A DNA stretch of 64,000 bases. Source: a virus (taxonomy: Duplodnaviria; Caudoviricetes). A program made the translations under genes and the position numbers. Below the pieces are notes generated by a model, which worked only from the letters and a program-made list of their open reading frames with translations, was not told the DNA's origin and did no database searches. This document shows positions 36,558-37,761 of the stretch, piece by piece. Each line of letters opens with the position of its first letter. The first letter of the stretch is position 1. The stretch spans positions 9,918 to 73,917 of the IMG/VR virus record IMGVR_UViG_3300017911_001697; one strand, given 5' to 3'.

Positions 36558-36674
36558 ATGTACGGCGGTATTCCCTTGTTTTTGACATTTTGCACAATTT
36601 TAATTGTGGTGGATACCGCTATCCATGTTATGATACAGATGTATTTTGAAAAACATCCTGCCTTTGTAGATTAA
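36558..36674 (+). CDS. Small single-pass membrane peptide (38 aa), not in the ORF track
   Basis: ATG directly follows the previous TAA; hydrophobic IPLFLTFCTILIVV. Confidence 0.45.
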   Translation: MYGGIPLFLTFCTILIVVDTAIHVMIQMYFEKHPAFVD

Positions 36675-36868
36675 AGCATTTCGTTATTGTTTTTGCCTGA
36701 TCTTGCTGCGTTAAACTTGTTGAGTGTTTTAATCAACAAGTCGCGATCCAACGGAGGTAGTAACCATGCTTCACTCCATGAGACTGCCCCTTCGCTGTAG
36801 ATAACTAACTCTGCGATTTGATTGCTAAGGGCAGTTTGATCGTTCTTGAGCTTCCCAAGATACGCCAC
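36671..36868 (-). CDS. gp51-like / tail-chaperone 'T'-like small ORF, probably also expressed as a -1 frameshift extension
   Basis: SWSEAWLLPPLDRDLLI motif; frame stays open upstream to the slippery site at 36904-36913. Confidence 0.65.
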   Translation of the reverse strand: MAYLGKLKNDQTALSNQIAELVIYSEGAVSWSEAWLLPPLDRDLLIKTLNKFNAARSGKNNNEML

Positions 36869-36879
36869 TATCTCCTCGG

Positions 36880-36913
36880 GCTCAGATTGAGCTAGGAAGC
36901 CGTGAAAAAATTT
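36880..36913 (-). other. Candidate programmed -1 ribosomal frameshift signal
   Basis: A AAT TTT and T TTT TTC heptamers in correct phase; downstream hairpin GCTCA-ATC-TGAGC. Confidence 0.7.
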
Positions 36914-37761
36914 ACAGGGTCAAAGTTTACTCTGCTTTCGAACGTGTATGGTTCTTCGTTTTCGTCTACACATTTTTCACATTGCATAGACATTTCATGA
37001 TTAATACCAATAGCATTGATTTCTTGAATTTTTCCTTCAATTAATTTGCCAACAGAATTTTCAGCATTGTTTAAAAATTCTGTGATGTGATCTCTGTCGT
37101 CAACTACCACAGATTCGCCGTCTTCGTCTATTACTGTAATACTAGCAACACTGTCTACGATTAAAGAAAAGTTTAATGCTGCAATCTGTTTGAAGTTGTC
37201 GTTAAACAGACGCAGTCTTTCCATTTCGTCTGTGACGTCTGCTAATGCTTGTAAACTTCTTGTGCTTTGGAAATTTGTGATACCTGCTTGAATTGTGCTG
37301 GCATAAGTGAACGGACGAATTTCAATAGTTAATGTGTCATGTCCAACAGTGTATGAATCTTCGAGCTTACCCATTGTGTCAATGGCTGCTTCAACGCTGG
37401 CAACACCTGATTGTGATTCTTTACACTTTGGGCATTCTGCTGTTACTTCAACTTCGTCGCCGTATGTAGCACCTTGAATAGCAACCAGCAACACATCAAT
37501 GTCACTGCTCATCATTGCTCTAGCGTTTTTAACATTAGGCACACAACTTTGAATAACTTGTGCAACTGCTTCTCCATTCAGTAAAGCATCAGGATTTTTC
37601 ATAATCATTTCGTCTTTTGCTGTCATAGAGAACACAGGTAACTCCTTGGTTTCAGGCATCTCTACAACTTCATCTGTGTAAAAACGACCTTCACTCGGAA
37701 TAGGAGTGAAAAGTTTAGGTGCTCTAAAATGAGCACTTAATGGATTGTGTTTGTTTGTCAT
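36892..37761 (-). CDS. gp26-like baseplate hub/tail assembly chaperone (289 aa)
   Basis: NPL..HFRAPK, LPVFSMTAKDE..MKNPDALLNG, DVLLVAI..ATYG motifs; two CxxC motifs (CPKC, CEKC). Confidence 0.75.
   Translation of the reverse strand: MTNKHNPLSAHFRAPKLFTPIPSEGRFYTDEVVEMPETKELPVFSMTAKDEMIMKNPDALLNGEAVAQVIQSCVPNVKNARAMMSSDIDVLLVAIQGATYGDEVEVTAECPKCKESQSGVASVEAAIDTMGKLEDSYTVGHDTLTIEIRPFTYASTIQAGITNFQSTRSLQALADVTDEMERLRLFNDNFKQIAALNFSLIVDSVASITVIDEDGESVVVDDRDHITEFLNNAENSVGKLIEGKIQEINAIGINHEMSMQCEKCVDENEEPYTFESRVNFDPVNFFTAS

Follow-up and report, generated by a model that had tools for sequence, protein, structure and literature searches.

Two reading frames at the 3' end of a gp26-type gene

We analyzed a stretch of 64,000 nucleotides (nt), hereafter called the window, from the virus record IMGVR_UViG_3300017911_001697 (Duplodnaviria; Caudoviricetes; positions 9,918 to 73,917), a 74-kilobase (kb) IMG/VR contig of an uncultured, marine giant T4-like phage. 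The minus strand of the window carries an open reading frame (ORF) of 289 amino acids (aa), ORF1, and in the -1 frame relative to it a second ORF of 65 aa with a GTG start, ORF2 (Table 1). From the sequence alone it had been proposed that a programmed -1 frameshift fuses the two, which were likened to the T4 proteins gp26 and gp51. We examined the junction between the two frames in the window and in relatives of the phage.

ORF1 matches the Pfam family PF12322 (T4_baseplate) over residues 46–269 with 58.7 bits against a cut-off of 24.5 (E-value 8.9e-16), and it also matches phrog_150, 'baseplate hub'. We found 947 homologues of near-equal length. Its AlphaFold2 (AF2) model has a predicted local distance difference test score (pLDDT) of 81 with the final 11 residues disordered, and the protein contains two CxxC pairs. 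By these matches ORF1 is assigned as a gp26-type protein, predicted to act in assembly of the baseplate hub. ORF2 matched nothing in Pfam, PHROGs or NCBIfam.

On the minus strand the 3' end of ORF1 reads ...GAC CCT GTA AAT TTT TTC ACG GCT TCC TAG. Two overlapping heptamers are located here, A-AAT-TTT (36913-36907) and T-TTT-TTC (36910-36904), and direct reading of the strand shows both to be in phase with ORF1, as had been claimed. The ORF1 stop codon (TAG, 36894-36892) follows three codons past them. The -1 frame contains a TGA at 36922-36920, three codons 5' of the T-run, and is then open as far as the stop at 36671; across the slip site it translates as ...FFHGFLAQSEPEEIVAYLGK... The reading frame thus agrees with the sequence-only reading in running stop-free into the 65-aa ORF and in giving a fusion of 363 aa, composed of 286 + 77 residues. 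Counted from the FF at the slip site the extension comprises 79 codons, of which 77 are newly decoded, plus the stop. The predicted tryptic junction peptide of the fusion starts with VNFDPVNFFHGF and ends in ...AYLGK.

We screened the ORFs of the window for an in-phase X-XXY-YYZ heptamer within the last 15 codons with at least 60 open -1 codons behind it. ORF1 was the sole case of such a heptamer plus open -1 frame among the 55 window ORFs of at least 100 aa, and the arrangement therefore exceeds what is expected by chance.

Table 1. Positions of the genes and sequence elements in the window.
Feature	Position	Strand	Basis
ORF1, gp26-type hub-assembly protein, putative short form	36892..37761	-	PF12322, phrog_150, AF2 model, 947 near-length homologues
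ORF2, 65 aa, GTG start	36671..36868	-	
Slip site A-AAT-TTT / T-TTT-TTC (AAATTTTTTC)	36904..36913	-	Direct reading; in-phase T-run kept in 14 diverged lineages
-1-frame extension, contains ORF2, putative C-terminal domain of 363-aa long form	36671..36910	-	Open frame, diversity pattern, profile hits, AF2
Candidate stem, 5' arm (GCUUCCUAG), over ORF1 stop codon	36892..36900	-	Starts 6 nt after A-AAT-TTT; pairs with 36850-36859
Candidate stem, 3' arm (CUUGGGAAGC)	36850..36859	-	Pairing with 5' arm
Small hairpin GCTCA-ATC-TGAGC, within loop of longer stem	36880..36892	-	In window; absent from L006, L009
Tape-measure-type gene, 1230 aa, putative gp29 counterpart	38999..42691	+	phrog_167/305, tail length tape measure

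Conservation of the slip site and of the -1 frame

The junction was read in 45 marine IMG/VR relatives (48-80% identity), in a second IMG/VR clade and in 12 cultured phages. The cultured phages include 121Q, Atu_ph07, CBB, SCTP-2, PA5oct, Phosso, RaK2, Vibrio phage 2.275.O, RsoM2USA and Xoo-sp13 with 24-39% identity, as well as two smaller T4-type phages, Rhizobium phage LG08 and Cronobacter phage LPCS28 (Straboviridae). In each junction read, the T-run is in phase and 65-106 open codons of the -1 frame come after it. Conservation of the heptamer and of the open frame among homologues had been suggested as a check on the proposed frameshift, and both T-run and frame are indeed kept in 14 deeply diverged lineages, in which identity to ORF1 is as low as 24%. 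The run is spelled xxT-TTT-TTC in most cases, T-TTT-TTT in RsoM2USA and Xoo-sp13, and A-AAT-TTT alone in variants with TCC. In tblastn searches with ORF1 and with the -1 peptide, homologues of both were found side by side in jumbo phages, and a 7-nt overlap is shared by 121Q, Atu_ph07 and CBB.

LG08 and LPCS28, whose proteins are 24-25% identical to T4 gp26, have the slip site; T4 and Aeromonas phage B614 are without it and have gene 25 directly next. The genomes of LPCS28 (L081, OM638103.1, ~1355-1545) and LG08 (L080, PP429226.1, ~1360-1560) measure 150-183 kb. Their short gp26 genes end in GAT-TTT-TTC with the -1 frame running onward for 65-72 codons, a stretch that is unannotated in LPCS28.

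From the slip site on, the -1 peptide FF(H/R)xxLLxxEPEEI is conserved in length and residues. The 0-frame tails past the T-run vary in both (TAS, E, A, EQSF, ENGS, RES, DLSFSS). A change from TTC to TCC replaces F by S in frame 0 and is silent in the -1 frame. Downstream, diversity per codon position in the -1 frame amounts to 0.40/0.30/0.60, a coding signature suggesting that the extension is selected as coding sequence in this frame.

Conservation at the slip site extends to the nucleotide level. In the marine clade TTtGA.CCtGTAAaTTTTTtCAc.GcTTC.TAg hardly varies, even at the synonymous A of GTA, a codon that makes up one third of the Val codons of the window, and GTA-AAT-TTT-TT is nearly invariant across 36 unique marine sequences. 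The frame could also be changed at the level of the transcript, if RNA polymerase added one U in the T-run and a subset of mRNAs encoded the 363-aa fusion in one frame. The element common to all lineages is in fact a homopolymeric T-run of 5-9 T, and the nine T of RsoM2USA are long enough for a contribution of polymerase slippage. The title of Vladimirov, Gautam and Davidson 2022 also speaks for this alternative. For bacterial RNA polymerase to slip efficiently, however, a run of about 8-9 T or longer is required, and most runs have 6 T and the TCC variants only 5. Polymerase slippage would also have no need of the AAA of A-AAT-TTT and the GTA codon, which are kept at synonymous sites, nor of a stem at frameshift-type spacing as described below. 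We consider transcriptional slippage unlikely on these grounds.

The extension as part of a probable fusion protein

In many loci the first ATG, GTG or TTG of the -1 ORF is found only at residue 33-51, and in one locus (L047) none of the 98 codons of the -1 ORF is a start codon. Where start sites are present they differ: in 121Q, Atu_ph07 and Phosso they overlap the ORF1 stop (TAATG / ATGA), in CBB, SCTP-2 and the window they come after EPEEI. An AF2 model of the extension based on a 92-row alignment reached a pLDDT of 91.5, with helices at residues 2-8 and 11-38, and is confident from residue 1. According to the model, a start at the GTG of the window (residue 15) would cut the fold in its first two helices.

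Moreover, P0063 (342 aa) and P0099 (336 aa), the latter encoded on three contigs, join PF12322 to the extension in one frame and have one F where the two parts meet. P0063, P0099 and P0124 are metagenomic one-frame fusions from a clade whose extension ends in ...WYMRGG...SGLPF, like those of Atu_ph07 and Phosso. For P0063 no relative was found in IMG/VR.

Taken as two separate genes, the 65-aa ORF would start alone, either at the GTG at 36868 with the help of GAGGAG or by termination-reinitiation, and the T-run would be kept only for its Phe-Phe. The GAGGAG 3 nt 5' of this GTG, pointed out earlier, is found in the sequence. The ATG codons overlapping the ORF1 stop in three cultured phages also fit separate genes, and T4 gp26 ends in ...EFFELL, so that FF could be a feature of the protein. 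However, a Shine-Dalgarno spacing of 3 nt, as seen here, is too short, and start sites are neither conserved nor present in all loci. The peptide 5' of the window GTG is conserved and is predicted to fold within the domain, and one-frame fusions exist. In T4, where the extension is missing, FF is encoded by TTC-TTT and there is no T-run. Independent expression as the full explanation therefore appears very unlikely.

An exhaustive profile search of the protein library yielded 256 relatives of the extension, nearly all of them orphans of 43-100 aa. These hits and the conservation of the extension across lineages at 24-39% identity, together with the confident fold and the signs of purifying selection in the -1 frame, make it extremely unlikely that the arrangement is due to chance or is a decaying remnant without a long product.

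Recurrent gene calls of 87-98 aa (P0005, P0014, P0021 and others) begin at an ATG 11 codons 5' of the FF, and those 11 residues are not conserved. This upstream ATG is probably an annotation artefact, as a conserved 0-frame xxA-TGG (Trp) codon yields ATG in the -1 frame. We also considered the extension as an internal repeat of gp26, since in two MAFFT alignments the extension was matched with the C-terminal half of ORF1. The idea was rejected: comparison of the ORF1 and extension profiles by hhalign gave a probability of 1.2%, so the MAFFT alignment is regarded as an artefact. The best matches of the extension model in BFVD were orphan proteins of 52-94 aa (template modelling score 0.66-0.87), with no gp51 among them; a match to a 'tail assembly chaperone' of a Microbacterium phage had an E-value of 0.74 and was unusable.

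Candidate stem downstream of the slip site

A GCTCA/TGAGC hairpin had been noted behind the slip site. It is present in the window, but it is not conserved; the close relatives L006 and L009, for example, do not have it. The hairpin is located within the loop of a longer candidate stem, the 5' arm of which covers the ORF1 stop codon. In the clade of the window (clade A, 13 sequences) this stem is 94% paired and shows no covariation. In the sister clade B the 5' arm is the same but its partner is AGGAAGC, situated some 15 nt farther downstream; here the stem is 86% paired and two pairs carry compensatory changes. Across sequences the stem starts 4-6 nt after A-AAT-TTT, and cultured phages have stable hairpins 6-20 nt downstream at varied spacing. 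The pairing is supportive of, though not proof for, a role of the longer stem, which probably stimulates the slip.

Relation to T4 gp26 and gp51

T4 gp51 (249 aa) matches PF12322 over residues 1-201 (E-value 4e-52) and has about 48 further C-terminal residues. Because both match PF12322, T4 gp26 and gp51 are paralogues. In precomputed annotation, homologues of gp51 carry PF12322 and PF28602. The tail of gp51 reads FKLLLNPDEV...YSxxSI..MxPxER...EKD and was placed in the same register as the extension by MAFFT and, weakly, by hhalign (P 0.005, probability 7%). A hidden Markov model (HMM) of the extension matched gp51 residues 220-252 in 19 of 94 proteins at an E-value of at most 0.01. These matches are weak but specific, with none among reversed sequences and none among 120 ORF1-type proteins. 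Nothing was found when the extension profile was compared to the whole T4 record.

The number of PF12322 genes varies with the presence of the slip site. Among the complete genomes compared, those with two PF12322 genes, T4 and Aeromonas phage B614, lack the slip site, and those with the slip site, 121Q, PA5oct, Atu_ph07, RaK2, Phosso, LPCS28 and LG08, carry a single PF12322 gene. The source contig likewise has one PF12322 gene, but the contig is only about 20% complete. This complementary distribution and the match to the gp51 tail suggest that the fusion product is the equivalent of gp51. The analogy to gp26 and gp51 drawn in the sequence-only reading holds in view of PF12322, tail match and distribution, with the correction that the 65-aa ORF is not a homologue of the whole gp51 and appears to correspond to its tail only.

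It is conceivable, if doubtful, that a single recoded gene is ancestral for the whole PF12322 family, from the 150-kb phages LG08 and LPCS28 to jumbo phages of 490 kb. The 26/51 pair of T4 would then be a derived duplication, and a long-range stem would be the driver of the slip, its 5' arm fixed over the stop codon and its 3' partner re-wired between clades.

Proposed short and long products of one recoded gene

ORF1 and the -1 frame very probably form one recoded gene, which by a programmed -1 slip would give rise to a short and a long product, the counterparts of gp26 and gp51. The programmed frameshift first proposed from the sequence finds comparative support in the conserved site, the conserved -1 peptide, the missing starts and the one-frame fusions. 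Most ribosomes would terminate at the TAG (36892) and release the 289-aa gp26-type protein. A fraction would slip back one base on AAATTTTTTC by tandem slippage on A-AAT-TTT or T-TTT-TTC, both leading to ...VNFFH..., and would decode 77 more codons to produce the 363-aa long form with a four-helix C-terminal domain. The stem with its 5' arm over the stop codon, 6 nt after A-AAT-TTT, would probably stimulate this event. We infer slippage of the ribosome, as well as its efficiency, from the features described above. The short form would resemble T4 gp26 and the long form gp51, with a gp26-like domain and a C-terminal tail; in T4 these are encoded by paralogous genes.

By analogy with T4 genetics and with G/GT of lambda, both forms may be non-structural chaperones acting on the hub, the tape measure and the initiation of the tail tube; the sequence-only reading had suggested tape-measure chaperones made in a fixed ratio. 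We infer this function from the short/long architecture, from the conserved neighborhood with tape-measure and hub genes and from the known roles of T4 gp26 and gp51. Chaperone or cofactor roles of these T4 proteins are cited in PMC9024508; in T4 they are known to be needed for hub assembly and to be missing from the finished virion. A sequence search of the PDB revealed no relative of ORF1 or of the extension, and no gene for a tube protein was found on the source contig or on five related contigs.

Several observations weigh against the interpretation as a recoded chaperone gene. With GAGGAG-N3-GTG present in the window, some independent start of the 65-aa ORF may occur. T-TTT-TTC is only 1-3 nt away from the stem and the spacing is canonical for A-AAT-TTT alone, a heptamer that is lacking in L014-L016 and in most cultured phages. 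The stem uses a different 3' partner in each clade, and about 4 of the 18 clade-B sequences disrupt it. For clade B, 0 of 500 shuffles reached the observed score, but among related sequences such a result can arise in the absence of real structure. At an hhalign probability of 7%, the extension is weakly linked to the gp51 tail, and support for all members examined comes from sequence comparison. As to function, ORF1 matched no tail-chaperone family in Pfam, and its model found nothing at an E-value of at most 1e-3 in a Foldseek search against solved structures. VIA-align of the model resulted in helical-hairpin matches only (residues 150-205) with Z below 8. In addition, the gene and the tape-measure gene point away from each other, and two genes separate them.

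Gene neighborhood

In the window ORF1 is accompanied by gp6-, gp25- and gp5-like baseplate genes, the gp55 late sigma factor and gp46/47, and further by the tape-measure-type gene and by portal, protease and major capsid genes. The two genes between ORF1 and the divergent tape-measure-type gene are insertions of metabolic type. They overlap each other (37854-38958, plus strand) and encode a 191-aa protein with a weak match to phrog_274 and a 180-aa HD-domain protein (PF01966); cultured relatives have none at this position. In 121Q, CBB, RaK2, PA5oct, SCTP-2, Phosso and RsoM2USA the gp26-like gene has a large gene as its direct neighbor in divergent orientation. The records of 121Q, CBB, RaK2 and PA5oct label this large gene a (virion) structural protein and the others call it hypothetical; a tape-measure-like label is given only in the note of RaK2.

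The recoded gene is followed directly, on the opposite strand, by a gene (35129-36400, plus strand) for a 423-aa protein whose N-terminus resembles a signal peptide and which has a weak cytochrome c domain. A single ORF of 5660 aa (2072-19054, minus strand) adjoins the gp6-like baseplate wedge gene (19064-23200).

Previous reports and annotation

The sequence-only reading knew of no frameshift described for T4 genes 26/51. This is apparently out of date, given two papers that cite Vladimirov, Gautam and Davidson 2022 (Virology 566:9-15). According to PMC10885494 some T4-like phages have a short gene and a longer fusion gene in place of frameshifting, and PMC12846349 refers to poly-T as a known -1 signal in TAC-N genes of T4-like phages. 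These citing papers indicate that a system of this kind in T4-like phages has already been published, and the window would be a further instance. Short gene plus fusion or frameshift, as mentioned in PMC10885494, is the arrangement seen here. In the literature searched on 121Q, RaK2, PA5oct and Atu_ph07 we found no mention of a frameshift.

A joined coding sequence (CDS) is annotated in 0 of the 12 GenBank/RefSeq slip-site records inspected; the slip-free records of T4 and Aeromonas phage B614 need none. The extension ORF is unannotated in the records of PA5oct (L052, 1849-2073), RaK2 (L054, 1858-2223), RsoM2USA (L056, after 1783) and LPCS28. If the 2022 paper is without jumbo phages, such as those of Asteriusvirus, Alcyoneusvirus, Wroclawvirus and Polybotosvirus, and marine giants, or without the stem, then the range of phages, the stem and the missing annotation in twelve records would be new. 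On our interpretation a product would be given to a stretch that is entered in databases as a hypothetical 65-aa gene or not annotated at all. We see the value in annotation rather than discovery; cultured, tractable relatives exist in 121Q, RaK2 and PA5oct.

Comparison with known systems

A conserved -1 frameshift of tail assembly chaperone genes was described by Xu, Hendrix and Duda 2004, as cited in PMC9024508, and is also found in E/E+E' of P2. Like gpG and gpGT of lambda, the products proposed here would be a short and a long protein with a shared N-terminus, generated by a -1 slip, supported here by sequence comparison, on X-XXY-YYZ toward the 3' end of a tail-assembly gene that has the tape-measure gene nearby. 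Unlike in lambda, where the tape-measure gene is downstream and co-oriented, it is divergent from ORF1 in the window, and in cultured relatives the gp26-like gene and the large divergent gene are adjacent but not co-oriented. No relationship to gpG was detected in sequence or fold, and the ORF1 protein, at twice the size of gpG, carries two CxxC pairs.

A resemblance in the signal itself is seen in the tail assembly chaperone locus of the Pakpunavirus phage Adele (PMC12846349), which has a poly-T slip signal (GTTTTT) at the 3' end of the short-form gene. There, too, the downstream piece is routinely mis-annotated as hypothetical protein or intergenic, and the argument is made from an uninterrupted -1 frame across alleles. 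The Adele gene differs in belonging to another protein family and in lying directly upstream of the tape-measure gene.

With T4 the locus shares PF12322, found in ORF1, gp26 (208 aa) and gp51, and the position next to hub and tape-measure genes; the gp51 tail motif YSxxSI..MxPxER aligns, weakly, with ..VSWSEAWxxxPxDR.. of the extension. T4 differs in having two divergent genes and no recoding, its FF being spelled without a T-run. The protein of the window is longer (289 vs 208 aa) and its extension exceeds the gp51 tail by about 30 residues. T4-type phages would follow the short/long assembly-chaperone rule of long-tailed phages, with the frameshift as the common form and the 26/51 gene pair of T4 as the exception.

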